From Acetobacteraceae bacterium (GTDB taxonomy: Bacteria; Pseudomonadota; Alphaproteobacteria; Acetobacterales; Acetobacteraceae): 43,054 nucleotides of DNA. Location of the stretch: the NCBI GenBank assembly GCA_043742865.1, contig JAYTXR010000012.1, positions 1-43,054 on the forward strand, written 5' to 3'. Below are positions 24,317 to 43,054 of the stretch, piece by piece. Positions within the stretch are counted from its first letter, which is position 1, and every line of letters begins with the position of its first letter. Made by a program: the position numbers and the translations under genes. Below the pieces are notes generated by a model. The model ran no database searches and was not told the DNA's origin. It worked only from the letters and a program-made list of their open reading frames with translations.

Positions 24317-24390
24317 CGGGACGTGAACGACTCCATAGACGGCGAGCCAGTTTGGCCTGCGCGTGCCTGGCTGTGCTAGCCTCCAGAACC

Positions 24391-26091
24391 ATGTCACGCA
24401 ACACCTCTCTTCGCGAAACTGTCCCCCTCGCCGCGCCCTACGGCCCGCCGCCCGGTGCGCTCGCCGGGCGCAGCATTGTCCTGGTCGGGCTGATGGGGGC
24501 GGGCAAGACCTCGATCGGCCGCAGGCTCGCCGCCAGGCTCGGCATGCCATTCCATGACGCGGATGCCGAGATCGAGCTGGCGGCCGGGCGAAGCATTCCG
24601 GAGATCTTCGCCCGCTACGGCGAACAAAGCTTTCGCGACGGTGAACGCCGTGTGATCCGCCGCCTGCTGTCCGGCGAACCCATCGTCCTGGCCACCGGCG
24701 GCGGTGCGTTCATGGACGACCAAACCCGTGCCGCGACGCGCCGGGATGCGGTTTCCGTCTGGCTGCGCTGTAGCTTGCCGGTGCTTGTCCGGCGCGTGAC
24801 CGGGCGCGACAACCGCCCGCTGCTGGCCGGCGGCGATCCGGAGACCATCCTCCGGGCGCTGATGGACCGGCGCCACCCGGTTTATGCAGAGGCGGACCTG
24901 ATCGTGGATTGCGGCGATGAAAGCCTGGATCACAGCACCCATGCGGTGATGCAGACGCTGCTGTCCTGGCGCCCGCCACGCCGGCTCTGCGTGCAGCTTT
25001 CCACCACCCAATACGACGTGGTGATCGGCAACAACCTGCTGGCACGCGCCGGCGCGCTGCTGGCGCCGCTGCTGGCGCAGAAGCGCGCCGTCGTGATCAC
25101 CGATGAACACGTCGCCGCTTTGCACCTGCAAACCTTGTTGCGCGGATTGGCGGAAACCGGCATCGCCGTCAGCCAGATCATCGTACCGCCGGGGGAGGCG
25201 TCGAAAAGCCTGGAGGTTTATTGTCGCGTAACGGACGCCTTGTTGGCAGCCAGGGTCGAGCGTCGCACGACCGTGATCGCGCTCGGCGGCGGCGTGGTGG
25301 GCGACCTTGCCGGCTTCGCCGCCGCCACCACGCTGCGGGGCCTGCCGTTCGTTCAGGTGCCGACCACGCTGCTGTCGCAGGTGGACAGTTCGGTCGGCGG
25401 CAAAACCGGCATCAACACGCCGCGCGGCAAGAATTTGCTCGGCGCCTTCCACCAGCCGCGGATGGTGCTGGCCGATACCGCCACGCTGGCGACGCTGCCC
25501 CGCCGCGAACTTGCCGCCGGCTACGCCGAGATCGTCAAGGCCGGGCTGATCGCGGACCCCGAATTCTTCGAGTGGTGCGAGCTTCATGGCGCGGGCGTGA
25601 TCGGGGGAGATCCCGACGCCCAGGCCGAGGCGATCCGCCAGGCCTGCGCCTTCAAAGCGGCCGTGGTCGGCGACGACGAACGGGAGGAAAAGCCCCAGGA
25701 TGGCCGCGCCCTCCTCAACCTCGGCCATAGTTTCGGCCATGCGCTGGAAGCCGAGTATGGCTATGGCGGCGGATTGTTGCACGGCGAGGGGGTTGCGGTG
25801 GGCCTCGGGCTGGCATTCCGGTTATCCGTCCGCCTCGGCCTCTGCCCGCAAGCGGATGCGGACCGGGTCGTGTCGCATGTGGCGGGCCTTGGCCTGCCCG
25901 CCGAACTGCGGACCCTGAACCGCCGCTTCTCCGCCTCCACGCTGGTTCGCCATATGCGCGGGGATAAGAAAATGCAGGACGGCGTCCTGAAATTTGTTCT
26001 CGTGCACGGCATCGGCCAGGCCTTTACCTCCTCGAATGTTGACGAACAGGCGGTGCTCGATCTGCTGCGGCAGGAAGGCTGCGACGCCTGA
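24391..26091 (+). CDS. aroKB: Fused shikimate kinase / 3-dehydroquinate synthase
   Basis: The N-terminal AroK part has the Walker A motif VLVGLMGAGKTSIGRRLA and DADAEIE. It continues without a stop or restart codon into AroB (YDVVIGNNLL..., GGGVVGDLAGFAAAT, VQVPTTLLSQVDSSVGGKTGIN, NLGHSFGHALE). Confidence 0.85.
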   Translation: MSRNTSLRETVPLAAPYGPPPGALAGRSIVLVGLMGAGKTSIGRRLAARLGMPFHDADAEIELAAGRSIPEIFARYGEQSFRDGERRVIRRLLSGEPIVLATGGGAFMDDQTRAATRRDAVSVWLRCSLPVLVRRVTGRDNRPLLAGGDPETILRALMDRRHPVYAEADLIVDCGDESLDHSTHAVMQTLLSWRPPRRLCVQLSTTQYDVVIGNNLLARAGALLAPLLAQKRAVVITDEHVAALHLQTLLRGLAETGIAVSQIIVPPGEASKSLEVYCRVTDALLAARVERRTTVIALGGGVVGDLAGFAAATTLRGLPFVQVPTTLLSQVDSSVGGKTGINTPRGKNLLGAFHQPRMVLADTATLATLPRRELAAGYAEIVKAGLIADPEFFEWCELHGAGVIGGDPDAQAEAIRQACAFKAAVVGDDEREEKPQDGRALLNLGHSFGHALEAEYGYGGGLLHGEGVAVGLGLAFRLSVRLGLCPQADADRVVSHVAGLGLPAELRTLNRRFSASTLVRHMRGDKKMQDGVLKFVLVHGIGQAFTSSNVDEQAVLDLLRQEGCDA

Positions 26092-27741: not shown

Positions 27742-28023
27742 ATAGGGGTTTTCCTTGCGTAAATTCGCTATTCAATAGATAGGCTTTACTCATTATGGCT
27801 AAAATGAATTGTAGAAAAGTATTTTTTTCTCCCGCCGCGCGTCCTTCCGCCAGCGTTCGCCTTGCCGGAGCGGTCGTTGCCCGTGCCCGCCAGCCTGATG
27901 TCACGGCCCCGATTTCATGCCCGGACTTCATCCCCTGGTCGCTGCCAGCCCCATCCGGCTACTGTTGCGCGCTTGACAATCCTGCACGGCGGCGAACCCC
28001 GCGAGCCCCCCAACGCCGCGGCC

Positions 28024-29475
28024 ATGCGCAGGCTTTTCTTTCACGTTTTCCCATCGATCATGCTGCCCGTGTTTCTCTCGGCGCTGGATCAGACCATCGT
28101 CTCGACGGCGCTGCCCGCCATTGCCGGTGCCCTCGGCAATGTCGAACAGATCTCGTGGATCGTCGTCGCCTACCTGCTGGCCAACACCATCGCCGCCCCC
28201 ATTTACGGCCGCCTCGGGGATGCACTGGGACGCAAGCGCATGCTCTACGTCGCGCTGGCGATCCTCATGACCGGCTCTCTGATCGGCGCAGCGGCGCCCA
28301 ATTTGTGGGTTTTGGTCCTCGCCCGGGTGTTGCAAGGCCTTGGCGGCGGCGGACTGATGACGTTGTCGCAGGCGCTGATCGGGGAGGCGGTGCCACCCCG
28401 CCAGCGCGGTCGTTATCAGGGGTATCTGGCCACCACATTTGTCACCGCCAGCACCTTCGGTCCCGTGGTTGGCGGTTATCTGACCGAGCATCTGGGCTGG
28501 CGCGCCGTGCTGCTGGTGAATATTCCGCTGGGCCTGCTGTCGATGTTGCTGGCGATCCGGTTGAAATCCCAATACCAGGGCGGTGGCCGGTTCAGCTTCG
28601 ACATCTGGGGCACGGTATTCTTCGCGCTCACCATCGTCCCCGGCCTGATCGCCTTGGAACAGGCACGCAAGCTGGATGCCCACGCATTGCCGCTGATCCT
28701 GCTGCTGCTCGTGATCGCCGCCGTCTCGCTGTTTGTGCTGATACGCCAGGAGCGCCGTGCCCCAACGCCGCTTCTGCCGGTCAATCTGTTGCGCGACCCC
28801 ACCATTCTTCGCAGCGATTTGATGGCGCTGTGCCTCGCCGGTGCGGTCGTCTCGATGATCACGTTTTTGCCGCTCTATTTGCAGGTTGCCCGCGGCGTCT
28901 CGCCTAGCGACACCGGAATGATGATGTTGCCGCTTACCGCCGGCATCGGCGTCGGCTCCATCTTCACCGGACGGATGATCGCACGTACCGGCCGCACCGC
29001 CATCTGGCCGTCCTTAGGGCTCGCGATCAGCGTGGCGATGCTGGTATTCCTGGCGATCCTGGCGCCGCAGCTTCCGGTGTCGGTACTCCCCTGGGCTTTC
29101 GCGGCTATCTCGATGAGCTTTGGCACCGGCATGCCGGTCGTGCAGATCACGGTCCAAACGATGGCCGGCCCGACATCGCTTGCCGCTGCCGCGGCTTCCG
29201 TGCAGATCTCCCGCTCGGTCGGCGCCGCCTTCGCCACGGCCGTTGTCGGCACAATCCTGTTCGCTGTCCTCGCCGCCAAGGACGCGCAGACGGCGGCGAT
29301 GTTCACCGAACTGATCCAGCACGGCCCGCCCATACTCGCAAACTTGGATCAGGTCCGTCGAGAGGCGGTGCAGACCGAGATCGCCGAAGCCTTCCAGGCT
29401 GCCTTTCTTACCATCGCCGGCTTCGCCACCGCCGCTCTGCTACTGGCCTGGAGCATACCGGTCCGGCGGCTATAG
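28024..29475 (+). CDS. MFS transporter, DHA2 (EmrB/QacA-type, 14-TMS) efflux family
   Basis: From the ATG at 28024: FPSIMLPVFLSALDQTIVSTALPAIAGALG, GRLGDALGRKR, LARVLQGLGGGGL. About 483 aa with 14 hydrophobic segments. Confidence 0.85.
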   Translation: MRRLFFHVFPSIMLPVFLSALDQTIVSTALPAIAGALGNVEQISWIVVAYLLANTIAAPIYGRLGDALGRKRMLYVALAILMTGSLIGAAAPNLWVLVLARVLQGLGGGGLMTLSQALIGEAVPPRQRGRYQGYLATTFVTASTFGPVVGGYLTEHLGWRAVLLVNIPLGLLSMLLAIRLKSQYQGGGRFSFDIWGTVFFALTIVPGLIALEQARKLDAHALPLILLLLVIAAVSLFVLIRQERRAPTPLLPVNLLRDPTILRSDLMALCLAGAVVSMITFLPLYLQVARGVSPSDTGMMMLPLTAGIGVGSIFTGRMIARTGRTAIWPSLGLAISVAMLVFLAILAPQLPVSVLPWAFAAISMSFGTGMPVVQITVQTMAGPTSLAAAAASVQISRSVGAAFATAVVGTILFAVLAAKDAQTAAMFTELIQHGPPILANLDQVRREAVQTEIAEAFQAAFLTIAGFATAALLLAWSIPVRRL

Positions 29476-29532: not shown

Positions 29533-31647
29533 CTAGGGAGCCGTTTCCGCCAATCCGGCGAGCCTTAACCCCTCAGCATAATGAAGCAGGTCCTCGGGCC
29601 GGGTCAGGGGGGATCGCGCCACCGCGTCGCGCACGCAGAATTTTGGTTCCAGAACCAACAACCGTTCCCGCAAGTTCTTCGCTTCGGTCAGCCGCCCCAG
29701 ATGGCCCAGCGCAGCCAAATGTCCTTTGTACGTCGATGAGAAGGTTGGGTTTAGCGCCAAAGCCCGGTTGCCGAGTCCGATCGCGAGATCATAGGACTGC
29801 AGCATCAGAAATGGCATCATCGCCGCCATATCGAAAAAGAACCCATGCGGATCGAACGGCGATAGCTTTCGCGCCTGCGCGATCCTCTCGATGGCTTCCT
29901 CATGCCTTCCCAGATAGGAAAGCGAGAGCCCCGAGAAACACCAGGCCAGCGCGAGATGCGGATTAACCGCCAACGCCTGCTCGTGCAACTGCAACCCTTC
30001 CTCGGCGTGCCGTCCGAGGAAGCAGCGAACGTGACCCGCGATTGTCAGGGCCCGGGCATCCGTCGGGTCGAGCCTCACGGCGCGTTCAGCCAGATCCCCC
30101 CCGAGCAGCGTTGCCGCCGCCACATCCTCTGCCCACCCCTGCCCAACCAGCAATAAATGCCAATAGGCATACCAGGCATGAGCCGAAGCATGGGTAGGAT
30201 CCAAGACGATTGCAGCTGCCAGCATCTCCCCGGCATCGTGAAATCCCTCCAGCTCAAGACGGTAGATCGCCGGAATGGCGCGCAGCAGCAGATGATCCGC
30301 ACTGGCGCCATCGCGCGGCAGGGAACGGGCCTTTTCCCCTTCGCGCACCAGCAATTCAGGATCCAGTTGGGCCACTGTCTCTGCCGCGATTTCTTCCTGT
30401 AGCGTCAGTAAGTCGGTCTCCTGGCGATCAAACCGCCTCGCCCAGATCACTTCCTCACCGGCATGCAGATCCAGCAATCGTATCATGACCCGCGCTCGGC
30501 CACGGCCACGCTGCACGGTTCCCTCCAGCAACAGATCCAAACCCAGCAACCGCCATGCCCCGCCCCCGCCAACCTGGCCCACGGCATTCTGCTGTGCCAG
30601 GGCACTCATGGAACTGGGGGCCACGCAAGAAAGCCAACTCAGCCGCGACAGGGTGTAGGTAATTTCCTCCGCCACTCCCAGCGACAATTCGTCCGTCTGG
30701 GAGGCGTCCAACATGCGCAGCGGCATTACGCCGATCCGCACCGGGCGATACCCGACGGAAACCGGAGCGAGGCCTGGCACCTGTGACGTCTTCGCCTGAT
30801 CGGCCGGCGGCCCGGGCCGGACGGAACGGATATCGGAAAAGACCTCTGCTGAACCCCGATTGCGGATGCTTGAAAGTATAGAAGCCGTCTCCTCCGAAGG
30901 AGCGAGTTGTGCCACTGCCGCCAGTGCATCGGCGCAACGTTCATAAGTGCTCACCGCAGCGGCCCGATCCCCCCTGGCTGCATGCACCCGGATCAAGACA
31001 CGCCAGGCGCCTTCATGCGCCCGGTCGATGGCGATCAGAAGTTCGGCCGCGCGGACCAAAGTCTCCATCCCCGCATCGGTCCCATCGGCCCCGGCCGTCT
31101 GGCAGGCAGCCAACCAGGCCTCCGCCCGGACGCGCGCCAATCCGGACAAAATTTCGGTCTGCGCTGCCCGCCAGCGGTCAAATGCCGGATCGATACCCGC
31201 CAGATCTTCGACCAGGGTCGGGCGGAACAATTCCAGCGCCTCGGGCCGGCTCACTCCGCCACGCGACAGCGCCTGGATGTCCACCTGCACAAGCTCGCTC
31301 AGCGATCGGCTTGCAGGCGCGTTTCCCAGGGAGAGATGGGTGCGATCCACCAGAAACAACGCCGGATCCATCCCGCCCAAAAGGTCACCTAGCTCGTGGA
31401 CGGCCTGACGCAGCGAGGCTCTGGCTTGCTCGCGCTCCCGTCGGCTCCACAGCAGTTCCGTCAACTCATCGCGTCTCACCGGTCTTCCGGCATTCAGCGC
31501 GAGCACCGCCAGCACTCCGCGCGTCTTGCGGCCTTTGGGCAGCAGGTTTGCTCCGTCCGGCCCACGCACGTCCATGGTCGAAAACAGTCTCACCCGCAGG
31601 AGCGGAAATCCCAGTTCAGGGACGGATACTCGGGGATCGCGTTCCAT
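29533..31647 (-). CDS. Large transcriptional regulator: N-terminal winged-helix (OmpR/SARP-type) DNA-binding domain plus central domain plus C-terminal TPR repeats
   Basis: The N-terminus LRVRLFSTMDVRGPDGANLLPKGRKTRGVLAVLALNAGRPVRRDELTELLWSRREREQARASLRQAVHEL is a SARP/trans_reg_C-type wHTH with a BTAD-like continuation. The C-terminal third has repeated TPR-like helices (AHAWYAYWHLL, ALTIAGHVRCFLGRHAEEGLQLHEQALAVNP, AWCFSGLSLSYLGRHEEAIERIAQARKLSP, YKGHLAALGHLGRLTEAKNLRERLL). Start is the ATG at 31647 or the TTG at 31677. Confidence 0.75.
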   Translation of the reverse strand: MERDPRVSVPELGFPLLRVRLFSTMDVRGPDGANLLPKGRKTRGVLAVLALNAGRPVRRDELTELLWSRREREQARASLRQAVHELGDLLGGMDPALFLVDRTHLSLGNAPASRSLSELVQVDIQALSRGGVSRPEALELFRPTLVEDLAGIDPAFDRWRAAQTEILSGLARVRAEAWLAACQTAGADGTDAGMETLVRAAELLIAIDRAHEGAWRVLIRVHAARGDRAAAVSTYERCADALAAVAQLAPSEETASILSSIRNRGSAEVFSDIRSVRPGPPADQAKTSQVPGLAPVSVGYRPVRIGVMPLRMLDASQTDELSLGVAEEITYTLSRLSWLSCVAPSSMSALAQQNAVGQVGGGGAWRLLGLDLLLEGTVQRGRGRARVMIRLLDLHAGEEVIWARRFDRQETDLLTLQEEIAAETVAQLDPELLVREGEKARSLPRDGASADHLLLRAIPAIYRLELEGFHDAGEMLAAAIVLDPTHASAHAWYAYWHLLLVGQGWAEDVAAATLLGGDLAERAVRLDPTDARALTIAGHVRCFLGRHAEEGLQLHEQALAVNPHLALAWCFSGLSLSYLGRHEEAIERIAQARKLSPFDPHGFFFDMAAMMPFLMLQSYDLAIGLGNRALALNPTFSSTYKGHLAALGHLGRLTEAKNLRERLLVLEPKFCVRDAVARSPLTRPEDLLHYAEGLRLAGLAETAP

Positions 31648-31775
31648 GTCGTCCAGCCAGCGCCTCCGATCGACCAACCCAGATGCGAGTTATTGAAAAT
31701 TGTATTCTGAATCACACTATCGTGAGTTCATCCAGTCCGCAATAATCCTTTGTAAACAGATATAGGAAAATTGTC

Positions 31776-31986: not shown

Positions 31987-32151
31987 ATGATGCAGGTTTC
32001 CTCGAATACCGCTCTGCCCAAGCCGACCAACGCGGACACCGTCGATAACGGTACCATTCACATCGGCGGCGGCTTTCGTCTTTCGCCGGTGGAAATCGCC
32101 GATAGCGCCCGCGTTCGCGTTGGCGGCGGCTTCCGCCTGCCTACCGCCTGA
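31987..32151 (+). CDS. 54-aa peptide with duplicated GGGFRL motif (candidate precursor or signalling peptide)
   Basis: GGAAGGA Shine-Dalgarno lies 6 nt upstream of the ATG at 31987. Translation: MMQVSSNTALPKPTNADTVDNGTIHIGGGFRLSPVEIADSARVRVGGGFRLPTA. It has no signal peptide or TM. A stem-loop follows, then a gene with its own strong RBS. Confidence 0.55.
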   Translation: MMQVSSNTALPKPTNADTVDNGTIHIGGGFRLSPVEIADSARVRVGGGFRLPTA

Positions 32152-32158
32152 CGATAAA

Positions 32159-32187
32159 GGCCAGGGGGAGCGAAGCTCCCCCTGGCC
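32159..32187 (+). terminator. Perfect 13-bp stem-loop directly after the peptide ORF (attenuator or partial terminator)
   Basis: GGCCAGGGGGAGC-GAA-GCTCCCCCTGGCC, starting 8 nt after the TGA. No clear U-tract follows (GCCTCTCGTGGGTGTTC). Confidence 0.55.
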
Positions 32188-32232
32188 GCCTCTCGTGGGT
32201 GTTCAATCCGGCCCAAACCAGGAGACCCGGTT

Positions 32233-33009
32233 ATGCCTCAGAACCTTTCCGTCAGAGCCGCCTGCGGTGCGCCGGTCGTCCACTTCCACCGACTGATCGA
32301 ACAGGCACGTGTGCCGATCCGCGCCGACCGGTCCGCTGCCGGAACGCTGCCGGCACGCGCCCTGCGATACTGCGAAGCCGTCACTTCCGCCGCCGGCTTT
32401 GGATGGTGGGTGTTTCCGCCGATCGATCTGACGCTGATGTGGGACGGCGACTCGATTTTCTGGCTTTACCAGGATGAATGGCTGGCGCTGACCACCGCAC
32501 AGTTTCCAGGCTTTTCCCGCGCATTCGATGCCGCGGCCCCGGCCGACCTGGCCGGTTGCGCGCCGCCCTTCCTCACCGTGTTGCCGGAACCGGGCACCTT
32601 GCAAATTTGGACCGGCCTGATCGCGCGCACGGCTCCGGACTGGAGTTTGCTGATCCGTCCTCCAGCCAACCTGGCGCTGCAAGGTGGCTATGCCCTTTAT
32701 GAAGGCATTGTCGAGGCCGACCGCTGGTTCGGACCGCTGTTTACCAATCTGCGCTTTACCCGCAGCCACACGCCTGTTCGCCTCACCGCGGACTTTCCCC
32801 TGGCCCAGGTCCAGCCGATTCCCCGCCACGCCTATAGTGACACAACCCTTGCGTCCATCGCTCTGACCCCCACGCTCGCCGCCCTCTCTTCGGCTGAATG
32901 GGATTCGTATCGGGTGAGTATCGCTGAACCCAGCTCTCGGCCCAACCGTCCTTTTGGCGCCTACGCGACCGAGACCCGAAAACGCCGCCGCGGCTTGTGC
33001 CCGGTCTGA
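32233..33009 (+). CDS. 258-aa protein of unknown function (possibly DUF6065-like)
   Basis: AGGAGA lies 7 nt upstream of the ATG. The N-terminal stretch ARALRYCEAVTSAAGFGWWVFPPIDLTLMWDG resembles the R-x-C-x-P/A-x3-A-x3-GW-x-[IV]-x2-P-x-D/F...W signature I associate from memory with DUF6065 proteins (unverified). It has no TM, no signal peptide and no recognisable cofactor motif. Confidence 0.65.
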   Translation: MPQNLSVRAACGAPVVHFHRLIEQARVPIRADRSAAGTLPARALRYCEAVTSAAGFGWWVFPPIDLTLMWDGDSIFWLYQDEWLALTTAQFPGFSRAFDAAAPADLAGCAPPFLTVLPEPGTLQIWTGLIARTAPDWSLLIRPPANLALQGGYALYEGIVEADRWFGPLFTNLRFTRSHTPVRLTADFPLAQVQPIPRHAYSDTTLASIALTPTLAALSSAEWDSYRVSIAEPSSRPNRPFGAYATETRKRRRGLCPV

Positions 33010-33748: not shown

Positions 33749-34204
33749 TTATCCTCTCGTTAATTTCACGGTCCATCGGCACCGTCCGGATACCAGATTT
33801 CCTTCAATCGCGTCCGAACCATCGGACAAATCGATCACCCGGGCGTGAAACAGAATCGTCAGCATCTTCTTATCTCCGCCTGCCCGTTCCTGGGAAGGTT
33901 CAAACGCGTTATCGGGGCCGAGCTTGCCCCGGATGGTCACGGTGTTCTGAAACGGCGCGAAGCCGAAGCCGCCACGTCCAACACTCATCAAGCCGGTCGT
34001 CGTGCTCCCGCATCCGGGCCCATCCGGCGCCACCGGGCCCACCCATCGCCCTTCGACGCCGCCAAGACCCACGACGCGCCCGGATTGCAGTATCGCCGCC
34101 GGATCGGAACTGGCGCACCCGAAAACCAGAAGGGGGAGGGCGATCTGAAGGCCATAAGAAAAAAAACTGATAAAAGGAATTTTTCCCTTGACCAACCGCC
34201 CCAT
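33749..34204 (-). CDS. Predicted lipoprotein, unknown function
   Basis: 151 aa from the ATG at 34204. MGRLVKGKIPFISFFSYGLQIALPLLVFGCASS is a signal peptide with the lipobox VFGC. The longer track ORF (to 34372) would overlap the phage small-terminase gene. Confidence 0.5.
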   Translation of the reverse strand: MGRLVKGKIPFISFFSYGLQIALPLLVFGCASSDPAAILQSGRVVGLGGVEGRWVGPVAPDGPGCGSTTTGLMSVGRGGFGFAPFQNTVTIRGKLGPDNAFEPSQERAGGDKKMLTILFHARVIDLSDGSDAIEGNLVSGRCRWTVKLTRG

Positions 34205-34217
34205 AAAATCGTATATA
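34188..34217 (+). promoter_or_regulatory. Candidate promoter at the left edge of the phage structural module
   Basis: TTGACC (34188-34193), an 18-nt spacer, then TATATA (34212-34217), in an AT-rich patch. It is very close to the ATG at 34221, so either the mRNA is nearly leaderless or the true start or promoter differs. Confidence 0.25.
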
Positions 34218-34220
34218 TCT

Positions 34221-34595
34221 ATGCATGATGCAGACACGCGCACAACACCGCGCAAAACTGCAACTTCCCCCATCTCGTCCATCCAAGACCCCACACCGCT
34301 CGACATTCTGCTGACGACCATGCGGCAGAAATGGTCAGGCGGCGATCCCGTTGGCGCCGCGGCAATCGCCAAGATCGTCGCTCCCTATATCCACTCACGT
34401 CCAATCCATTCACGCCCAGTCCACACGCGTACAGTCCATTCACGTCCGGTCCATTCAAGCCGGGCAACCACCGGCAATCTTTCCGAAACCCAAACGGAAC
34501 TGCACCGACTGACCGATGACGAACTCGCAATCAGACTGGCGTCAGCTCACCGGGGAGCAGAAGACCCGCCAGACGATCCGCACCAGCCTGACTGA
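34221..34595 (+). CDS. Phage terminase small-subunit-like protein
   Basis: It lies directly upstream of, and overlaps, the large terminase gene. TPLDILLTTMRQKW...AAAIAKIVAPYIHSR resembles the conserved segment (..PLEFLL.VMRD......AA.AAAPY.H..) of small proteins that precede TerL in alphaproteobacterial phages (from memory). It contains an HSRPx pentapeptide repeat. Confidence 0.5.
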   Translation: MHDADTRTTPRKTATSPISSIQDPTPLDILLTTMRQKWSGGDPVGAAAIAKIVAPYIHSRPIHSRPVHTRTVHSRPVHSSRATTGNLSETQTELHRLTDDELAIRLASAHRGAEDPPDDPHQPD

Positions 34596-35931
34596 TTGGG
34601 CTTGCGTCGCCCTGGACCCGTTAGGGCAGTCTCCCGCCGCCCATCATCACCTGTTGATCTCCGAGCTGGAAAAAATCGCCACCGGGCTAAACGACCGCCT
34701 GATGCTGCTGCTGCCGCCCGGCAGCGCCAAATCAACCTATGCGTCCGTCCTGTTCCCAGCCTGGTGGTTCACCCAGCACGCCCAAAGCTCGGTCATCGCG
34801 GCCTCCCACACCGCGGACCTCGCCCATCATTTTGGCCGTCAGGTTCGGGATCTGGTCACCGCGCAGGGCGAACGGCTCGGCTACACCCTGGCCCAGCACA
34901 GCCGGGCGGCCGGACGGTGGCGCACCTCCCTCGGGGGTGAGTATTTCGCGGTCGGGATCCGCGGGCCGGTCACCGGCCGCCGGGCTGACCTCGCCATCAT
35001 CGACGATCCCATTAAATCGCACGCGGAGGCAGACAGCGCAAACCAGCGGGACCTGCTTTGGAACTGGTACCGTGCGGATCTGATCACCCGACTGAAGCCG
35101 GGTGGGCGCATCGTGCTGATCATGACCCGGTGGCACGAAGACGATCTGGGCGGGCGGTTGCTGTCGCATCAAAAAGGGCAGTGGCGCGTCCTCCGCCTTC
35201 CCGCCCTGGCCGAACCGAATGACCCGCTCAACCGTCCCGAAGGCGCACCGCTTTGGCCGGATTGGGAAAGTGCTGAAGCGCTCGATCGCAAGCGCGCCAC
35301 TGTGGGCGAGCGGGTCTGGTCGGCGATGTATCAGCAGACCCCTCGGCCCGCCCATGGCAGCCTGTTCATGATCCGGCCTATCGAGATCGCCGACCAGCCG
35401 CCGCTATCGGGCCGCTCGGTCCGGGCCTGGGATCTCGCCGCCACGCCCAAGCGGCCCGACAACAACCCGGACTGGACCGTCGGCGTTAAGTTGCACCGAA
35501 CCGACTCCCAGCACTTCACGGTCACCGATGTTATCCGCCTGCAAGGCAGTCCGCACCAGGTAGAGGAAGCCATCCTCCACACCGCCAAACTGGATGGCCG
35601 CCCGGTCACCATCTCCCTACCGAAGGACCCCGGCTCCGCCGGCGGTTTCGTCGCCAGTTATCTTGCCGGGCAGCTGGCAGGATACAACCTGGTCATCACA
35701 TCCGAAACCGGCTCGAAAGCCTCTCGCGCCGCCCCTGTGGCGGCACAGATCGAAGCCGGCAATGTCTCCATCGTTCGCGCCACATGGAACCATGCCTTCC
35801 TGGAAGAACTTCGAGACTTTCCGTACGGCATCAAGGACGATCAGGTAGATGCCTTGTCACGCGCCTTCGCCGCCCTGATCGAACAGGGTGCTCCGGCTCG
35901 CCGGATGACCGTGCCCTTCCTCGCCCGTTAG
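34516..35931 (+). CDS. terL: Phage terminase large subunit
   Basis: 471 aa. LLLPPGSAKSTYASVLFPAWWF is Walker A-like. ADLAIIDDP is Walker B. LIMTRWHEDDLGGRL is the coupling motif. A C-terminal nuclease-type region includes DDQVDALSRAF. Confidence 0.9.
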   Translation: MTNSQSDWRQLTGEQKTRQTIRTSLTDWACVALDPLGQSPAAHHHLLISELEKIATGLNDRLMLLLPPGSAKSTYASVLFPAWWFTQHAQSSVIAASHTADLAHHFGRQVRDLVTAQGERLGYTLAQHSRAAGRWRTSLGGEYFAVGIRGPVTGRRADLAIIDDPIKSHAEADSANQRDLLWNWYRADLITRLKPGGRIVLIMTRWHEDDLGGRLLSHQKGQWRVLRLPALAEPNDPLNRPEGAPLWPDWESAEALDRKRATVGERVWSAMYQQTPRPAHGSLFMIRPIEIADQPPLSGRSVRAWDLAATPKRPDNNPDWTVGVKLHRTDSQHFTVTDVIRLQGSPHQVEEAILHTAKLDGRPVTISLPKDPGSAGGFVASYLAGQLAGYNLVITSETGSKASRAAPVAAQIEAGNVSIVRATWNHAFLEELRDFPYGIKDDQVDALSRAFAALIEQGAPARRMTVPFLAR

Positions 35932-35938
35932 GACCTGC

Positions 35939-37357
35939 ATGTTTGAAACCATTTGCGACCTGATCCCCCAGGATCGGGACTACCCGCCGCGCGCGCGCGT
36001 GCTGGACATCCTCAAACGCGTCCTGAATGGCACTTTCTATGACGTGCTGCCCAACCAGTTTCATGAAGAAAGAGGTCCTGGCGGAGACTACATTCCGCTG
36101 CGCAACCGCCGCCCATCGGTCCGGTATGCCCTCTCGCGGATCGTCGTCGAGGACAGTGTCGCGCTGTTGTTCAGTGAGGGACATTTCCCGACCATCGACT
36201 GCGCCGACCGGACGATCCGTGCCGCATTGGCCGACATTGCCAAGGAGACGCGGCTCAACCAAATCATGACCGAGGCAGCGATCCGCGGCTCGATCGGCTC
36301 GGTCGCCATCCTGATGCGCGTGCTCCGCGGCCGTATCTTCTTCGAGGTTCTCGATACCACCTGGCTTAATCCAATCTGGGACCCGGAGGCACCCGACACG
36401 CTGAAGGCCGTTACCGAGCGTTATAAGGTGGCGGGACGTTTCCTCGCCGCCACCAGCTACGATATCGGCGACCCCAGCGTCGATTATTGGTTTTCCCGCA
36501 GTTGGGACAGTGGCGGCGAAACCTGGCTGCTGCCGCAACCGGTTGGGAATGATGGCCCGCCTGAGATAGACACCGAACGAAGCGTCCGCCACGGGCTTGG
36601 CTTTGTCCCCATCGTCTGGATAAGGAACCTCCCCGGATTTTCGGCGACCGCCGATCCGAATGACGGCGCGTGCACATTCCGCAGCGCCATCGAGACGCAA
36701 ATTGAAATCGACTACCAGCTCAGCCAGGCCGGCCGCGGCCTGAAATACAGTTCCGATCCCACATTGCTGATCAAGGAACCGGCAACCGCCGATACCGAGA
36801 TCGTCAAGGGTGCCGGCAATGCATTGGTTGTCAGTGAAAAAGGTGATGCCAAGCTGCTGGAAATCGGCGGTACGGCGTCGGCCGCGGTCATCGACTATGT
36901 CCGCACCTTGCGCGAATTCGCACTTGAAAGCGTGCACGGCAACCGGGCCAGCGCGGATCGCCTGAACGCGGCGCAATCGGGGCGGGCGCTGGAGCTGATG
37001 AACCAGGGCCTGATCTGGCTCGCCGACAATCTTCGAGTCAGCTACGGCGAGGGTGCGTTGCTGCAGCTCGCCCGCATGGTCTTGCGGGCGTCCAATACCT
37101 ATCGTTTACAGGTATTGGGCAATGAGATTTCAACGCTCGACCCGGCCGCACGGTTAACGTTGAAATGGCCCCGCTGGTATCCCCCTACGGCGGAGGATCG
37201 TCAGCGGGACGCGCAGACCCTCGCCACGCTCGCCGCCTCCGGACAGATTTCTCGTGAAACGGCCGTCAAGTCGATCGCCGATATCTACGATATCGAGGAT
37301 GTGCCGGCCGAGCTCGCCCGCATATCCGCATCCCGAAAACCGCTCAGGAAGGCCTAA
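35939..37357 (+). CDS. Putative phage portal protein
   Basis: 472 aa, immediately after terL and before the scaffold and capsid genes. Both size and position are canonical. No specific family motif was recognised by eye. Confidence 0.6.
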   Translation: MFETICDLIPQDRDYPPRARVLDILKRVLNGTFYDVLPNQFHEERGPGGDYIPLRNRRPSVRYALSRIVVEDSVALLFSEGHFPTIDCADRTIRAALADIAKETRLNQIMTEAAIRGSIGSVAILMRVLRGRIFFEVLDTTWLNPIWDPEAPDTLKAVTERYKVAGRFLAATSYDIGDPSVDYWFSRSWDSGGETWLLPQPVGNDGPPEIDTERSVRHGLGFVPIVWIRNLPGFSATADPNDGACTFRSAIETQIEIDYQLSQAGRGLKYSSDPTLLIKEPATADTEIVKGAGNALVVSEKGDAKLLEIGGTASAAVIDYVRTLREFALESVHGNRASADRLNAAQSGRALELMNQGLIWLADNLRVSYGEGALLQLARMVLRASNTYRLQVLGNEISTLDPAARLTLKWPRWYPPTAEDRQRDAQTLATLAASGQISRETAVKSIADIYDIEDVPAELARISASRKPLRKA

Positions 37358-37764
37358 TGACAGTCACAGAACAGCCACCGGACGAGCCTGACCCTCTCGC
37401 GCAATTGCGTGCCCGCGCGGATGCGCTGGAACATCTGCTTGCCGCGACCCAGGCAGAAACGGAAGCTCGCCTGGTTCGTGCGGAGCTCAAGGCCGAGGCG
37501 ATCCGCGCCGGTATGGTGGATCTCGACGGACTGAAGCTGCTTGATTTTTCCCGTTTGAAACTATCGAAATCCGGGGAGTTAGACGACGCCGGAACGATCA
37601 TGTCCAAGTTCCGGCAAGCTAAGCCCTGGCTGTTCGGCGCGGCGTCCTCCTCATCGCCCGCCACGGCGCCGCCGGCCCAGCCGCCCCGCAAGAAATTGGC
37701 AACCGAAATGACGGATGCCGAATACCGAGCCGCCCGCGCGGACCTCGTCAAACGTCGAAGCTGA
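37357..37764 (+). CDS. Putative phage scaffolding protein
   Basis: 135 aa. It is a charged helical protein (LAQLRARADALEHLLAATQAETEARLVRAELKAEAIRAG) between the portal and major capsid genes. Its ATG overlaps the portal TAA by 1 nt. Confidence 0.55.
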   Translation: MTVTEQPPDEPDPLAQLRARADALEHLLAATQAETEARLVRAELKAEAIRAGMVDLDGLKLLDFSRLKLSKSGELDDAGTIMSKFRQAKPWLFGAASSSSPATAPPAQPPRKKLATEMTDAEYRAARADLVKRRS

Positions 37765-37798
37765 ACTCCCCATAATCTGAGTTAGAGGAACAATCCGC

Positions 37799-39121
37799 AT
37801 GGGTATTCAAAACTTCCCCGCCGCGCTCCAGCCGATCATCCAGCAAGGCTTCCTGGAACGTGAATTTCAACAGGCGCTGCATTCCCGTCTCGGGTACCGC
37901 GCCGTCGCCGATCGTGAAGACATCGCCGTGGGGATAGGTGAAACCCTCACCAAGACCCGCGCCGGGCTCAAGCCCAGCGTCACAATCCCGCTGCCGCCGG
38001 CCACCAACACCAATCTCGACAACGGCCTGACACCGACAACCTGGGGGGTCGAGCAGTACACGCTGACCATCAACCACTACGCCGCAACCACCGACCTCAA
38101 TATGGTTACGTCCCGGGTCGGCATCGCCAGTCAATTTCTGCAAAATGCTTTCATTAATGGCGAGCAGGCAGCCCGTTCGCTGGATGAACTGGCACGCAAT
38201 GCCTTGTTCGCGTCGTATTTCGGCGGCAATAGTCGGGTACGTAGCACGCTCAGTGTGGCCGGCCCCAGCGTCAACGTCGACGATATCCGTGGCTTCCAGA
38301 ACGTGTTCATCAACGGCGTCCAAACGCCGGTCAGCACCGCGGCGTCGCTCACCGTCACCATCGGCGCCAATCCGTACACGCTGACCGGAACGGCGGCCGA
38401 TGCCGCCAATCTGTCCACCACGCCGGGCGGCATCTCGGGCGTGCTGACCTTGGCTGCCGCGGTTGCAGTTTCCGACGGCACCGCCGGCACCGCCGTCACC
38501 GCGGCCAATGCCTCGGTGATTGTGCGGCCATTCAGCCGTTCGAACACCACCAACCTGATCGCCGGCGATACGCTGACGATGTCCAACCTACTCGACGCGG
38601 TCGCCAAGCTACGCCTGAATGCCGTTCCCGAGATCGATGGGGTCTATAATTGCTATCTTGACCCGGTCTCCGCCCGCCAGTTGTTCGCCGACAATGATTT
38701 CCGCCAGCTGTTTCAGGGCGCTACGTCCGCGAACCAGGTCTTTCGTCAGGGCATGGTCAATGATTTCCTGGGCTTGCGGTTCATTCCCACCACGGAAGCC
38801 TATGTCCAGCCGCATCCGACGCTTGCTGGCTTGATGGTCCGCCGCCCGATCGTCTGCGGCCAGGGCGCGCTGATCGAAGGCGACTTCGCTGGCATGGCGG
38901 AAGATGATATCGCCCCCAGCGACAGCATCGTCTCGTTGGTTGATGGTGTGGCGATGGTGACGCGTGAACCGATCGACCGGCTGCAGCAGATCATTGCCCA
39001 GTCCTGGTACTGGATCGGCGGCTTCTGCGCCCCGTCCGACACCACGACCAATCCGGCGACGATCCCAACCGCCACCAACGCCGCCTTCAAACGCGCGGTG
39101 ATGATCGAACACGTCGGCTGA
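37799..39121 (+). CDS. Putative phage major capsid protein
   Basis: 440 aa with AGAGGA upstream of the ATG. Position after the scaffold gene, the size, and an Ala/Thr/Gly-rich composition are typical of major capsid proteins. Confidence 0.6.
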   Translation: MGIQNFPAALQPIIQQGFLEREFQQALHSRLGYRAVADREDIAVGIGETLTKTRAGLKPSVTIPLPPATNTNLDNGLTPTTWGVEQYTLTINHYAATTDLNMVTSRVGIASQFLQNAFINGEQAARSLDELARNALFASYFGGNSRVRSTLSVAGPSVNVDDIRGFQNVFINGVQTPVSTAASLTVTIGANPYTLTGTAADAANLSTTPGGISGVLTLAAAVAVSDGTAGTAVTAANASVIVRPFSRSNTTNLIAGDTLTMSNLLDAVAKLRLNAVPEIDGVYNCYLDPVSARQLFADNDFRQLFQGATSANQVFRQGMVNDFLGLRFIPTTEAYVQPHPTLAGLMVRRPIVCGQGALIEGDFAGMAEDDIAPSDSIVSLVDGVAMVTREPIDRLQQIIAQSWYWIGGFCAPSDTTTNPATIPTATNAAFKRAVMIEHVG

Positions 39122-39195
39122 TAGCCACGAACGGATCGATAACCAACGGCGCGGCAACGCGCCAGCCTCCCATCTGCCAAAGGACCGGCCCGCCG

Positions 39196-39576
39196 ATGTC
39201 TCTCACCGATGCCGAAAAGACCGACGCGCGCCGGTTCTGTGGCTATCCCGCTTACGGTGCGGGGGCGGCAGGATTTCAGAACTGGAGGTTCTATCAAGCC
39301 TATGGCCTGCTCGAATTTCGTCTCAACAACCTGGCCGATGCCGAACTTGCCGTGTTGCGCGGCTATCTGAACACCCTGCTCGGCCTGGAGGCAGCGATCC
39401 CGAACGCCGCCGCCAACCTCGATACCGACCAAGCCGCGGTATGGACTCGAAATCGCAATGAAACTGCGGACAGGGCGGCACTGTTTGACGATTGGCGCCG
39501 CCGCCTCTGTGGCTTCCTCGGGATGCCGGCGGGGCCTGGGCTTGCCTCCGGCGGCTCCGTGACCTTGGTCGTATAG
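39196..39576 (+). CDS. Phage hypothetical protein (head-associated position)
   Basis: 126 aa. The codon usage looks coding and it lies in the same-strand phage module. Confidence 0.5.
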   Translation: MSLTDAEKTDARRFCGYPAYGAGAAGFQNWRFYQAYGLLEFRLNNLADAELAVLRGYLNTLLGLEAAIPNAAANLDTDQAAVWTRNRNETADRAALFDDWRRRLCGFLGMPAGPGLASGGSVTLVV

Positions 39577-40235
39577 TGGATCGATCTCATCTGCAGGACC
39601 GCATCAGCTGGGGTCTGAACGTCGCCGCCCGCCACATCGGCCGCAGCACCGACGCCTATCGTGCAAATGACTGCGTAGACGCCCTGTCACCGGCCAATCG
39701 CTTCCTGAAGCTGCAGGCAGCCTTCAGCGCGCCCGACGGCAAGTTTGTTCGCCCCAGCGGCTACGGCAATCCGCTCTGGTATGGGGTTTTCGACAATGCC
39801 TACACGCAGCCGGGTGACTACCTGGTACAAGACGCTGAGATCTGGTTTGTTGTCGCCCAACAGCCGTTGCTGCCGGTGCTGTGCGTTCAGACCAATCGCA
39901 CGGTCAGCTTTGCCCGACCCGCCTCGCCCAACGCGATCGGCCTCAATGCGTATGGGGGCGTTTCTGCCCAGACCGCCGAGACATTGATCCGTGACTTTCC
40001 AGCCAGCGTTCTTGGCACCTCTGGTTCCAGCCATCCCGCCGCCAGCCTGCCGGGCGACACCTCCATCGGCTACTGGACCGTGCTGCTCCCAGCGGTATCA
40101 GCACCGGATGGCACACTCGTCATTCTGCGGCAGGCCGATCTCATGACCGACGAGCTTGGCCGGACCGGCGTTGTCGCCGGCGCCGAGCTGACGGATCTCG
40201 GCTGGCGGCTCAACGTGAAGCAGGCAACCACCTGA
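39576..40235 (+). CDS. Phage hypothetical protein
   Basis: The GTG at 39576 overlaps the preceding TAG by 1 nt. 219 aa. The track ORF start at 39492 would overlap the previous gene by 85 nt. Confidence 0.45.
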   Translation: MDRSHLQDRISWGLNVAARHIGRSTDAYRANDCVDALSPANRFLKLQAAFSAPDGKFVRPSGYGNPLWYGVFDNAYTQPGDYLVQDAEIWFVVAQQPLLPVLCVQTNRTVSFARPASPNAIGLNAYGGVSAQTAETLIRDFPASVLGTSGSSHPAASLPGDTSIGYWTVLLPAVSAPDGTLVILRQADLMTDELGRTGVVAGAELTDLGWRLNVKQATT

Positions 40236-41044
40236 TGGCCGATCAGTCGGATGTAGAAAATGCCCTCGCCGCTCTGGTCGCTGCCGCGCTGTATCCAAGG
40301 GGTCCGGATGCACCCAGCCTTCCGGGCCCTTCCTGCCGCGTCTATCGCGGCTGGCCGAACCCGGCAGCGCTCGATGCCGATCTGGCGATGGGACACGTCA
40401 ACGTCACAATCTTCGCCGGCGATGCCGCGCCCCGCCTGACCACGCGCTTTGCCGAGGAATTTCTATCGACACCGGTCACGCCGACCCTGCAGGCGTCGGT
40501 GTCAGGCTCGTCGGTTGCCTTCACCGGGAGCGCCGATCCTGGCCAACTCGCCGGCGTCCTTGTCGATGGCCAGCCTTACGTCTATCGAACACTGTCCAAC
40601 GATACCTCCGCTTTGGTTGCGGCAACGATCGGCTCGCTGATCCGTGCCACGCGTATCGTTCATCTCCACGACGCGACGCTCGATATATACGGTGCCCACA
40701 CCGTTGCCGCACGCGTTGTGGCGTTCCGCTCCGTGCTCCAGGAAATCCGTCGTCAACGCCTGAGGATCCGCGTCAGCTGTTGGTGCCCCAGCCCAACTTC
40801 ACGCGATGCCACGGCGGCGTCGATCGACGCCGCTTTCGCATCCACGCGCTTCGTGACTCTGGCGGATAATTCTCAGGCCTGGCTCACCTTTGCCGGCGGT
40901 GCGGTGTTCGATCAGTCCGAAAACGCCTCGCTCTATCGCCGCGACCTTCGCTATGCGGTCGAATACGCCACCACGCTCAGTCAATCTCAGCCGGAAATGC
41001 TGTTCGGCGCCCTCGGCGTGAACGCTCTTCACATCACCGCATAG
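40235..41044 (+). CDS. Phage hypothetical protein
   Basis: 269 aa. Its ATG overlaps the preceding TGA as ATGA-type coupling at 40233-40237. Confidence 0.5.
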   Translation: MADQSDVENALAALVAAALYPRGPDAPSLPGPSCRVYRGWPNPAALDADLAMGHVNVTIFAGDAAPRLTTRFAEEFLSTPVTPTLQASVSGSSVAFTGSADPGQLAGVLVDGQPYVYRTLSNDTSALVAATIGSLIRATRIVHLHDATLDIYGAHTVAARVVAFRSVLQEIRRQRLRIRVSCWCPSPTSRDATAASIDAAFASTRFVTLADNSQAWLTFAGGAVFDQSENASLYRRDLRYAVEYATTLSQSQPEMLFGALGVNALHITA

Positions 41045-41057
41045 ATATGGAGACACG

Positions 41058-41210
41058 ATGAACGTTCATTTGGTCGTCGTGCGGCCGTTTGCCGGCCTCG
41101 CGCGCGGCGTATCCGTTACCGATACGGCTCGGATCGAGCAAATTCTCAACAGCGAGCATGCCGACAAGGTCGTCAAGGTCTGCTCGCGTGCGCCTGAAAA
41201 GGAGTCCTGA
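41058..41210 (+). CDS. Small phage protein (50 aa), not in the supplied ORF track
   Basis: The ATG at 41058 is preceded by GGAGA. Translation: MNVHLVVVRPFAGLARGVSVTDTARIEQILNSEHADKVVKVCSRAPEKES. The stop is at 41208-41210, and AAGGAG of the sheath gene RBS lies inside its 3' end. It exactly fills the gap between two phage genes. Confidence 0.5.
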   Translation: MNVHLVVVRPFAGLARGVSVTDTARIEQILNSEHADKVVKVCSRAPEKES

Positions 41211-41215
41211 TACCC

Positions 41216-42775: not shown

Positions 42776-42799
42776 CGGCACCCGCGACAGGATTATCGA

Positions 42800-43054
42800 A
42801 TGGCAACCAACAACTTCTCCCTGGGTCGCGACACCCAGCTGGTCCTGATGGGCCCGGCCGGGCGTGTCGACCTCGCGCACGTTACCGGTTTTGAGAGCAG
42901 CCAGCTTACGCTGCCGGTCCGCGTCGACCGGCTGGACGGCACGCAGATGTCGGCCGAGCTGCCAAAAGGCTGGCATGGCAGCTTCGATATCGAGCGTGGC
43001 AATTCCGCGGTCGACGACTTCATCGCCACCGCGGAACAATCCTACTTCAACGGC
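42800..43054 (+). CDS. Phage tail tube protein (3' truncated by window end)
   Basis: MATNNFSLGRDTQLVLMGPAGRVDLAHVTGFESSQLTLPV... The position directly after the sheath gene is canonical for the tube protein. The ORF runs off the window. Confidence 0.6.
   Translation, partial: MATNNFSLGRDTQLVLMGPAGRVDLAHVTGFESSQLTLPVRVDRLDGTQMSAELPKGWHGSFDIERGNSAVDDFIATAEQSYFNG

Follow-up and report, generated by a model that had tools for sequence, protein, structure and literature searches.

The 43,054-nt stretch of contig JAYTXR010000012.1 from an Acetobacteraceae bacterium (GenBank assembly GCA_043742865.1), here called the window, encodes a 258-residue protein of the family DUF6065. We found that its gene belongs to a cassette consisting of a repeat-peptide gene, a hairpin, the DUF6065 gene and the gene of a cytoplasmic sensor with TolB_N-like and tetratricopeptide repeat (TPR) regions, usually accompanied by an exporter (Table 1). 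DUF6065 has so far been without an assigned function. The reading that we prefer, and to which we give about an even chance, is that DUF6065 is a hydrolase or modifying enzyme dedicated to the peptide, and that its product is the ligand of the TPR sensor encoded next to it. The hairpin would set an excess of the precursor and the transporter would export the product. A concrete, testable role and a natural substrate are hereby proposed for the family.

The linkage of the two genes was analysed at 74 genomic loci with relatives of the window protein, all from Acetobacteraceae or from unclassified alphaproteobacterial metagenome-assembled genomes (MAGs); 72 of them were testable. At 69 of these 72 loci, a small open reading frame (ORF) that ends in one to four copies of the motif D-x-G-x-h-R-h-G-[G/A] was found on the same strand just upstream of DUF6065. 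A short co-oriented precursor gene that is kept beside an enzyme gene across taxa is the arrangement by which precursors and maturases of ribosomally synthesised and post-translationally modified peptides (RiPPs) are recognised. An earlier reading of the window, made from the sequence only, had named a short ORF with a GGGF motif as the expected upstream companion. The ORF itself is there, but the motif is broader than this: a strict search with GGG[FYW..] recovered the peptide at only about 30 of the 74 loci. This low count is an artefact, since the apparently empty gaps contain variants that lie outside the search pattern (GAGFRLP, GAGWRLP, IGAAVGRP and LGGLSPLF, of the GAG, GAA, AAV and GLS types). 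The three loci that have no peptide form one well-supported clade and also have neither the sensor nor the receiver gene.

Independently, 151 Acetobacteraceae genomes were searched with a DUF6065 profile and a peptide profile. DUF6065 was present in 76 and the peptide in 54 of these genomes. All but one of the 54 peptide-positive genomes also had DUF6065, and in the exception the peptide lies at a contig end. When the matches of the peptide model were counted one by one, 107 of 125 preceded a full-length DUF6065 gene on the same strand by 42-613 nt. About one in two Acetobacteraceae genera has the cassette. Multiple copies are common: a genome may contain as many as three complete cassettes, and each of these has a sensor of its own.

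The peptides diversify together with their partner. The peptide type (G[G/A]G-x-RLP, IGAAVGRP or LGGLSPLF) tracks the DUF6065 clades, and the motif varies from clade to clade at its aromatic residue and in its second half (AAVGRP, GLSPLF). The repeat units, for example RIRLGGGWRLP, have a cationic and amphipathic character. A peptide ORF has up to 8 matches to the model, and a single motif copy was found in 36 of 60 cassettes. The sequence-only reading had proposed the 258-residue protein as a modifying or processing partner of the peptide. This proposal gains support from the linkage and from the peptide-maturation genes beside distant homologues, described below. It would have been contradicted by homologues that mostly have no small ORF beside them, which is not what the loci show. 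The same reading had taken peptide and protein for a minimal pair, which no longer holds, as the unit is at least a triad with the TPR sensor and usually has an exporter.

Table 1. Positions of the cassette and of other features in the window, and of related loci elsewhere. Positions without a locus name refer to the window.
Feature	Position	Strand	Basis and remarks
54-aa peptide gene with two motif copies (VDNGTIHIGGGFRL, ADSARVRVGGGFRLP)	31987..32151	+	ORF and translation
Perfect 13-bp GC-rich stem-loop, loop GAA, no U tract	32159..32187	.	Read from the sequence
Shine-Dalgarno-like AGGAGA	32220..32225	+	7 nt before the DUF6065 ATG; read from the sequence
DUF6065 gene (258 aa, predicted dUTPase-like fold)	32233..33009	+	PF19541 match, AlphaFold2 model, Foldseek
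714-aa sensor-regulator gene with OmpR-type winged helix-turn-helix (wHTH), BTAD-like, TolB_N-like and TPR regions	29533..31677	-	Pfam; divergent from the peptide gene
Stand-alone receiver-domain protein gene, 180 aa	33049..33591	-	PF00072, E=8.5e-8, 32.8 bits versus 30.2; convergent with DUF6065
Major facilitator superfamily (MFS) transporter gene, candidate exporter in this clade	27862..29475	+	PF07690 (MFS_1), E=1.7e-52
Phage-like head-tail cluster	34188-43054		Small ORF, large terminase (phrog_38, E=7e-92), SPP1-type portal, major head protein, two conserved unknowns, tail sheath
In-frame pentapeptide repeat (IHSRP IHSRP VHT...)	34389-34463		Inside the small ORF that precedes the terminase gene
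aroK-aroB fusion, 579-aa ORF	24352-26091		Shikimate kinase (PF01202, E=4.5e-46) and 3-dehydroquinate synthase (PF01761, PF24621)
Second cassette type	L006 5740-8421		Also at L003-L005, L008, L011, L012, L069; adjoins cydB
P0131, 42% identity	L114		Divergent BTAD-TPR regulator, EamA exporter, 82-aa ORF with 3x DSGRVRIGTMSPLF, DUF6065
P0188, 35% identity	L108 1563-3641		74-aa ORF (MNELFAFKV...), MvdD-type ATP-grasp (E=4.9e-14), DUF6065 13 nt later
P0239, 31% identity			66-aa ORF, gene without assignment, B12-radical-SAM enzyme, HD-like DUF6817, DUF6065
P0235, 34% identity	L112 348-9548		Two radical-SAM enzymes, S8 peptidase, DUF6065, glycosyltransferase, three JmjC/cupin proteins
P0262, 34% identity			DUF6065, unassigned gene, 49-aa ORF, unassigned gene, DegT aminotransferase, radical-SAM enzyme; integrase beside one copy
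HD-like DUF6817 directly before DUF6065, overlapping	L106 9095-10460		In a radical-SAM operon

The 258-residue ORF, its own ribosome-binding site and its distance of 81 nt from the peptide gene on the same strand had been described before and are borne out by the sequence. The gap runs from the peptide stop codon TGA at 32149-32151 to the DUF6065 start codon, and the two genes are, incidentally, in one frame. The ATG at position 32233 is supported because the closest homologues begin alike (MPQSLPVKA..., MRQKCPVKA...). In the Pfam search the protein matched DUF6065 alone (PF19541; E=1.6e-13, 51.1 bits at residues 121-231, with a gathering cut-off of 26.6 bits), which confirms the family named by the sequence-only reading. 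A six-frame search of the window genome with PF19541 gave 41.6 bits, compared with 300-347 bits for core DUF6065 members in other Alphaproteobacteria. Judged by these profile scores, the window protein is a divergent member of the family.

That reading had named the family from an N-terminal segment of the protein, RYCE...GFGWW. This segment is a true family signature, with C47 conserved in 99%, G57 in 99% and W58 in 88% of 76 homologues, yet it lies outside the residues scored by Pfam. Where the window protein has this segment, a core Pfam member carries YRCLPLTMANTTGWEIL. By eye, the family signatures Y-R-C, A-x3-G-W, P-N and G-h-h-E-T-D-W are present in the window protein as RYC(47)E, A53..G57-W58, P145-N146 and G158-I-V-E-A-D163-R-W, and in the core member at L080 as YRC, ANTTGW, PNH and GLIETDW. 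DUF6065 is a large family: a total of 2638 relatives were matched; separately, 654 clusters at 50% identity were obtained. Many Acetobacteraceae genomes (for example G525, G505 and G412) encode further distant DUF6065-like ORFs of 250-470 residues, which match only the profile positions from about 106 to 233 with E values of 1e-7 to 1e-15.

Searches of the 258-residue protein against NCBIfam, PADLOC and PHROGs gave no match. No radical-SAM, YcaO, oxygenase, protease or P-loop family was matched in Pfam at E<=0.1, in agreement with the sequence-only reading, which had seen no such motif and none for nucleotide binding. An anti-phage defence system was considered and rejected, as none of the five proteins had a PADLOC match. 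Our literature search found no publication that mentions DUF6065 or PF19541.

A stem-loop follows the peptide stop codon. In the window this stretch has a minimum free energy of -47.4 and a z-score of -5.2. A GC-rich hairpin was found after the peptide stop at most loci, alike in structure and different in sequence. The median z-score across loci was -2.1, and 35 of 62 loci had a z-score below -2.

The structure of the window protein was predicted with AlphaFold2 from 76 sequences, with a predicted local distance difference test (pLDDT) score of 94.8 and a predicted template-modelling (pTM) score of 0.88. When the model was compared with the Protein Data Bank (PDB) by Foldseek, the best 50 matches were all trimeric dUTPases, with E values from 2.3e-6, a probability of 1.00 and TM-scores normalised to the target of 0.57-0.76. 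The model thus assigns the protein a dUTPase jelly-roll fold, a fold of hydrolases that use acid-activated water. Trimeric dUTPases are homotrimers whose active sites lie between the subunits; the model here is of a single chain. The predicted protein is twice as long as a dUTPase and its C-terminal part is helical. At the sequence level the relation is distant. PF00692, the dUTPase family, was not matched at E<=0.1, and a profile search of the PDB sequences returned no dUTPase and, as its sole match, a chance tail-fibre protein (E=1.1). When the protein was aligned with the dUTPase of the host (Dut) by hhalign, the probability was only 2.9% and only two stretches aligned: the motif III loop (GLIDPDY in Dut, EGIVEADRW in the window protein) and the motif IV strand (RFAQLV in Dut, PLAQVQ in the window protein). 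For the Asp of motif I, the Ser/Arg of motif II (P-R-S-G) and the Gly-rich arm of motif V, we found no counterpart among the conserved residues. Motifs I, II and V of dUTPases hold the magnesium ion and the triphosphate. The genome has a normal dut gene with all motifs on another contig. A housekeeping dUTPase was accordingly rejected, with PF00692 unmatched, motifs I, II and V absent and a separate dut in the genome. The sequence-only reading had named a confident assignment without relation to peptides as evidence against its proposal. The predicted fold is indeed that of a nucleotide enzyme, but the dUTP-binding motifs are lost and the genome has its own dut.

These results bear on a reading in which the substrate of DUF6065 is a nucleotide or some other small molecule and the upstream ORF is a regulatory small protein or a leader that tunes its expression or activity. 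The fold, the two aligned motifs, the hairpin between ORF and gene, the HD-like DUF6817 that is fused or adjacent to some relatives, and core family members that stand alone are all consistent with it. We nevertheless regard it as quite improbable. The low hhalign probability, the missing PF00692 match and motifs and the separate dut argue against a nucleotide substrate, and leader peptides are neither conserved at the amino-acid level across 40-85% identity, nor do they vary in repeat number or co-diversify with a downstream protein.

Conservation was then analysed in the 76 homologues. N146 and P189 are invariant, Y244 is conserved in 97% and Q124 in 95%, and E157, E161 and D163 are acidic in at least 93%. 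Together with C47, this pattern looks like a catalytic site on a hydrolase scaffold, as far as the alignment and the model allow us to say.

DUF6065 could also be the binding partner of the peptide and not an enzyme. Control of the TPR protein would then rest with the complex, or DUF6065 would remove the signal by sequestration or destruction. The repeat units would dock on the protein, for example in place of the C-terminal motif V arm (R-G-x-G-G-F-G) that dUTPases lend to the neighbouring subunit. DUF6065 has no such arm, and by eye the R-h-G-G-G-F of the peptide resembles ARGAGGFGSTG in the host Dut. Proteins with this fold can be regulators: phage dUTPases control the Stl repressor, and Dut-Stl complexes were among the PDB matches. 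In one metagenome representative of 313 residues (P0121) the peptide motif (...DVGRIRFGAAAAKPP / ...HDVGRIRFGAAAAKPP...) precedes a full DUF6065 domain in frame, which is either a natural peptide-enzyme fusion or a lost stop codon, and regulators adjoin the cassettes (65 of 69 within 5 kb). On the other side, the aromatic residue and the second motif half are not conserved across clades, a copy number from 1 to at least 8 is ill-suited to a stoichiometric partner, the invariant Cys and Asn and the acidic cluster resemble a catalytic site, and AlphaFold2 did not dock the fused peptide (see below). We think that a mere binding role is improbable.

The contigs of ten distant representatives with 31-42% identity were looked up, and five were informative; three others (L107, L109, L113) were too short. 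L116 had no peptide-maturation context on its contig and L117 had only unannotated ORFs. The cassette of P0131 has the gene order of the window, and its DSGRVRIGTMSPLF motif type also occurs in Roseomonas. The P0188 locus looks like a graspetide-type cluster in which DUF6065 is an extra enzyme. The P0235 operon lies on a metagenome contig of 122 kb, and we identified no precursor gene for it. DUF6817, which precedes DUF6065 at L106, is fused to it in one chain in P0227. By their neighbours, these relatives of DUF6065 beside peptide-maturation enzymes appear to point to peptides too.

The 714-residue protein encoded divergently from the peptide gene had only TPR_17 above the Pfam cut-off (30.4 bits). 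Trans_reg_C (E=1.9e-4, 21.9 bits, cut-off 26.2), BTAD (E=1e-3, 19.9 bits, cut-off 22.1) and TolB_N (E=1.4e-3) remained below their cut-offs; the regulator at L114 matched BTAD with E=1.3e-10 and 42.2 bits. Neighbouring genes were found by tblastn of the window proteins against each locus. A homologue of the C-terminal part of the 714-residue protein (residues about 260-711) was present within 5 kb at 65 of the 69 peptide-bearing loci: upstream and divergent at 52, downstream and convergent at 8, and downstream and co-directional at 5. What these proteins have in common is the C-terminal TolB_N-like/TPR region. The output partner of this region differs: in the window it is joined to a weak wHTH/BTAD region and at L006 to HisKA-HATPase_c-REC, as a soluble hybrid histidine kinase. 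Since the same region stands on different signalling outputs, we take it to be the sensor domain.

The loci with the second cassette type differ further: the leader of the peptide is longer (MNNLPKRFVPARVAGLP...), the peptide stop is not followed by an evident hairpin, and the gene of the sensor, HisKA-HATPase_c-REC-TPR, is convergent with DUF6065. Six MAGs have both cassette types, and their peptides then differ at the variable position (Y/W versus F/I); these pairs are not phylogenetically independent.

The other neighbours are less constant. A homologue of the receiver-domain protein was found at the same position at 45 of the 69 peptide-bearing loci. The MFS gene occurs at its position only in the window and at the two closest loci, L001 and L068. 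Between the regulator and the peptide, 36 other loci encode a membrane protein of the YeiH type (PF03601, E=1.4e-67), and L114 encodes an EamA transporter. Across the examined loci, neither an immunity gene nor an ABC (ATP-binding cassette) or PCAT (peptidase-containing ABC transporter) exporter nor a protease is conserved.

A precursor, an enzyme, an exporter and a BTAD-type regulator are also the layout of a classical RiPP natural-product cluster, for example for an antimicrobial or metal-binding peptide. DUF6065 would then be the maturase and the wHTH/BTAD-TPR protein only an activator of the SARP (Streptomyces antibiotic regulatory protein) type. The cationic and amphipathic repeat units fit this explanation, as do the distant homologues in ATP-grasp, radical-SAM, S8 peptidase and JmjC clusters. 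However, a TPR region that is conserved while its output domain is exchanged behaves like a sensor and not like a pathway activator, and up to three cassettes in one genome have a sensor each. In addition, the immunity, exporter and protease genes of such clusters were not conserved, and the cassette is not patchy but spread over roughly half of the genera in the family. We consider the natural-product explanation unlikely.

Several results weigh against our preferred reading of DUF6065 as the enzyme of a peptide signal. We know of no member of the dUTPase fold that acts on anything other than nucleotides, and the link to DUF6817 hints at phosphate or nucleotide chemistry. The Pfam search found no RiPP recognition element (PqqD-like) or other known peptide-binding domain. 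A known maturase domain was likewise not found by Pfam and NCBIfam, in which only DUF6065 was matched; neither a known recognition element nor a known maturase domain is universal among RiPP classes. No tandem-repeat ORF was found within 1.5 kb of about 20 core Pfam DUF6065 genes from other Alphaproteobacteria, a search that would miss single-unit peptides, and the core gene at L080 stands alone. As most cassettes encode a single motif copy, they cannot in general serve to release many units. A read-through chain of the peptide, a 28-residue linker and DUF6065, with the stop codons as Gly and 20 paired rows from other loci, was modelled with AlphaFold2. DUF6065 reached a pLDDT of 97-98 in this model, but the peptide was not placed (pLDDT 35-52, and at least 50 only at residues 49-54). 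Finally, the variable residue of the peptide (F/Y/W/I/C) was compared with the columns of DUF6065 and of the regulator in 10 contrasting sister pairs and 10 control pairs, and no robust covariation signal was detected.

In the same material, residue 162 of DUF6065 (codon 32716-32718, in the E-x-D loop) was Thr with 10 of 13 Tyr-type peptides and Ala with 7 of 15 Phe-type peptides. With only about two independent contrasts, this trend is a lead and not a result.

The gene, its family and fold, the conserved residues, the linkage, the co-diversification and the exchange of output domains are observed; an action of DUF6065 on the peptide, as hydrolase or modifier, and the sensing of its product by the TPR domain are our inference. 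With DUF6065 as a peptide-dedicated enzyme, the cassette might work as follows. The peptide would be made in excess over the enzyme, because the hairpin would attenuate read-through or stabilise a short transcript. DUF6065 would recognise each D-x-G-x-h-R-h-G-[G/A] unit and would hydrolyse it or modify it covalently. Its pocket, probably inherited from the dUTPase/dCTP deaminase fold, would have kept the acidic motif III loop (E157, E161, D163, W165) and gained the almost invariant Cys47, Gln124 and Asn146. The product would be exported, by the MFS transporter here and by the YeiH-type or EamA protein elsewhere, and/or be active inside the cell. The product would be the ligand of the TPR sensor, whose output would be DNA binding, as in the window, or a hybrid histidine kinase. 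A part in the relay may fall to the stand-alone receiver protein.

The dUTPase/dCTP deaminase superfamily shares with DUF6065 the fold, the motif-III-like loop (G-I-V-E-x-D-x-W compared with G-L-I-D-P-D-Y) and the motif-IV-like strand (P-L-A-Q-V-Q compared with R-F-A-Q-L-V). In contrast to dUTPases, DUF6065 lacks motifs I, II and V and a match to PF00692, has near-invariant Cys, Gln and Asn residues added, and is encoded among peptides and signalling proteins instead of genes of nucleotide metabolism.

With three known peptide systems the cassette shares no homologous component, and the likeness is in the logic. In the ComQXPA system of Bacillus, a modifying enzyme, a precursor peptide, a sensor and a response regulator are encoded together; the enzyme ComQ is an isoprenyl transferase, and the sensor ComP is a histidine kinase in the membrane. 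Our cassette likewise combines a small gene for a precursor and one dedicated enzyme gene with signalling proteins as the presumed readers of the product; its peptides vary at one residue, and their sequences have diverged between lineages. The differences are the dUTPase-fold enzyme, the cytoplasmic TPR sensor, the repeats in the peptides, the gene order and the phylum. No homology to Com proteins was found in the Pfam search of the window proteins.

The RRNPP systems of Bacillota comprise Rap-Phr, NprR-NprX, PlcR-PapR and the phage AimR-AimP. They likewise have a cytoplasmic TPR regulator beside a small pro-peptide gene and several paralogous cassettes per genome. The cassette departs from them in four respects: its peptide lacks a Sec signal sequence, it always includes a dedicated enzyme in the cytoplasm, its sensor region combines TolB_N-like and TPR parts and may be fused to a histidine kinase, and it is carried by Gram-negative Alphaproteobacteria. 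In the Pfam search, the 714-residue regulator matched none of the RRNPP families, only generic TPR and weak Trans_reg_C, BTAD and TolB_N.

The multi-core RiPP precursors, such as the cyanobactin precursor PatE and those of microviridins and other graspetides, resemble the peptides described here in their repeated conserved core units with variable linkers and a copy number from 1 to at least 8. They also have a hairpin between the precursor and enzyme genes and an adjacent exporter, and in P0188 DUF6065 directly follows an MvdD-type ATP-grasp gene and a 74-residue ORF. Unlike them, the window cassette has no known maturase family, recognition element or leader protease, and most cassettes encode one unit.

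The cassette is a combination of precursor peptide, enzyme and sensor with an unprecedented enzyme scaffold; in our literature search, no publication was found that links the dUTPase fold with precursor peptides or RiPPs. A wider interpretation is tentative: we hold it possible, with the balance of chances against it, that DUF6065 is the first dUTPase-fold enzyme on ribosomal peptides and that the cassettes form a new and widespread class of peptide signals in Gram-negative Alphaproteobacteria, with cytoplasmic maturation, export and TolB_N/TPR receptors. The precursor would be poor in leader sequence and contain one to many D-x-G-x-h-R-h-G units. The enzyme might perform a hydrolytic chemistry related to dCTP deamination, perhaps a cleavage or a deimination at the invariant Arg, and the TolB_N/TPR receptors, fused to transcription-factor or histidine-kinase outputs, would read the exported product. 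Relatives of DUF6065 would have been recruited as tailoring enzymes into peptide clusters of the graspetide and radical-SAM types.

Signalling between cells by peptides and cytoplasmic TPR receptors counts as a trait of Gram-positive bacteria and their phages. If the signalling interpretation is true, the cassette is a Gram-negative counterpart and brings a quorum-sensing logic like that of RRNPP and ComQX outside the Bacillota. If the dUTPase fold does peptide chemistry, it is a new enzyme scaffold for the genome mining of RiPPs, and the presence of DUF6065 in ATP-grasp and radical-SAM peptide clusters would be explained. Roseomonas alba HJA6, Neoroseomonas lacus CGMCC 1.3617 and Paeniroseomonas aquatica CECT 7131 are culturable carriers.

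The right end of the window is occupied by a phage-like head-tail cluster, with no integrase or lysogeny genes to its left. Its portal was found in 82 of the 151 Acetobacteraceae genomes at 46-91% identity, mostly as a single copy. This pattern points to a domesticated, vertically transmitted element of the gene-transfer-agent type and not to a prophage acquired recently. The terminase and portal genes start about 1.5 kb downstream, and this order is kept at 19-21 of the 69 loci. One could suppose from this that the cassette regulates the cluster, in the manner of a gene-transfer agent or of a phage peptide system of the arbitrium type. Many of the genomes with the mostly single-copy portal have no DUF6065, however, and in genomes of one or two contigs that contain both (G482, G425, G548, G407, G421 and G468) the genes are far apart. 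We conclude that the adjacency is a synteny within one group of genera; control of the cluster by the cassette is largely refuted and very improbable. Inside the cluster, the small ORF before the terminase gene contains an in-frame pentapeptide repeat. To the left of the MFS gene, shikimate kinase and 3-dehydroquinate synthase are encoded as one fused protein.

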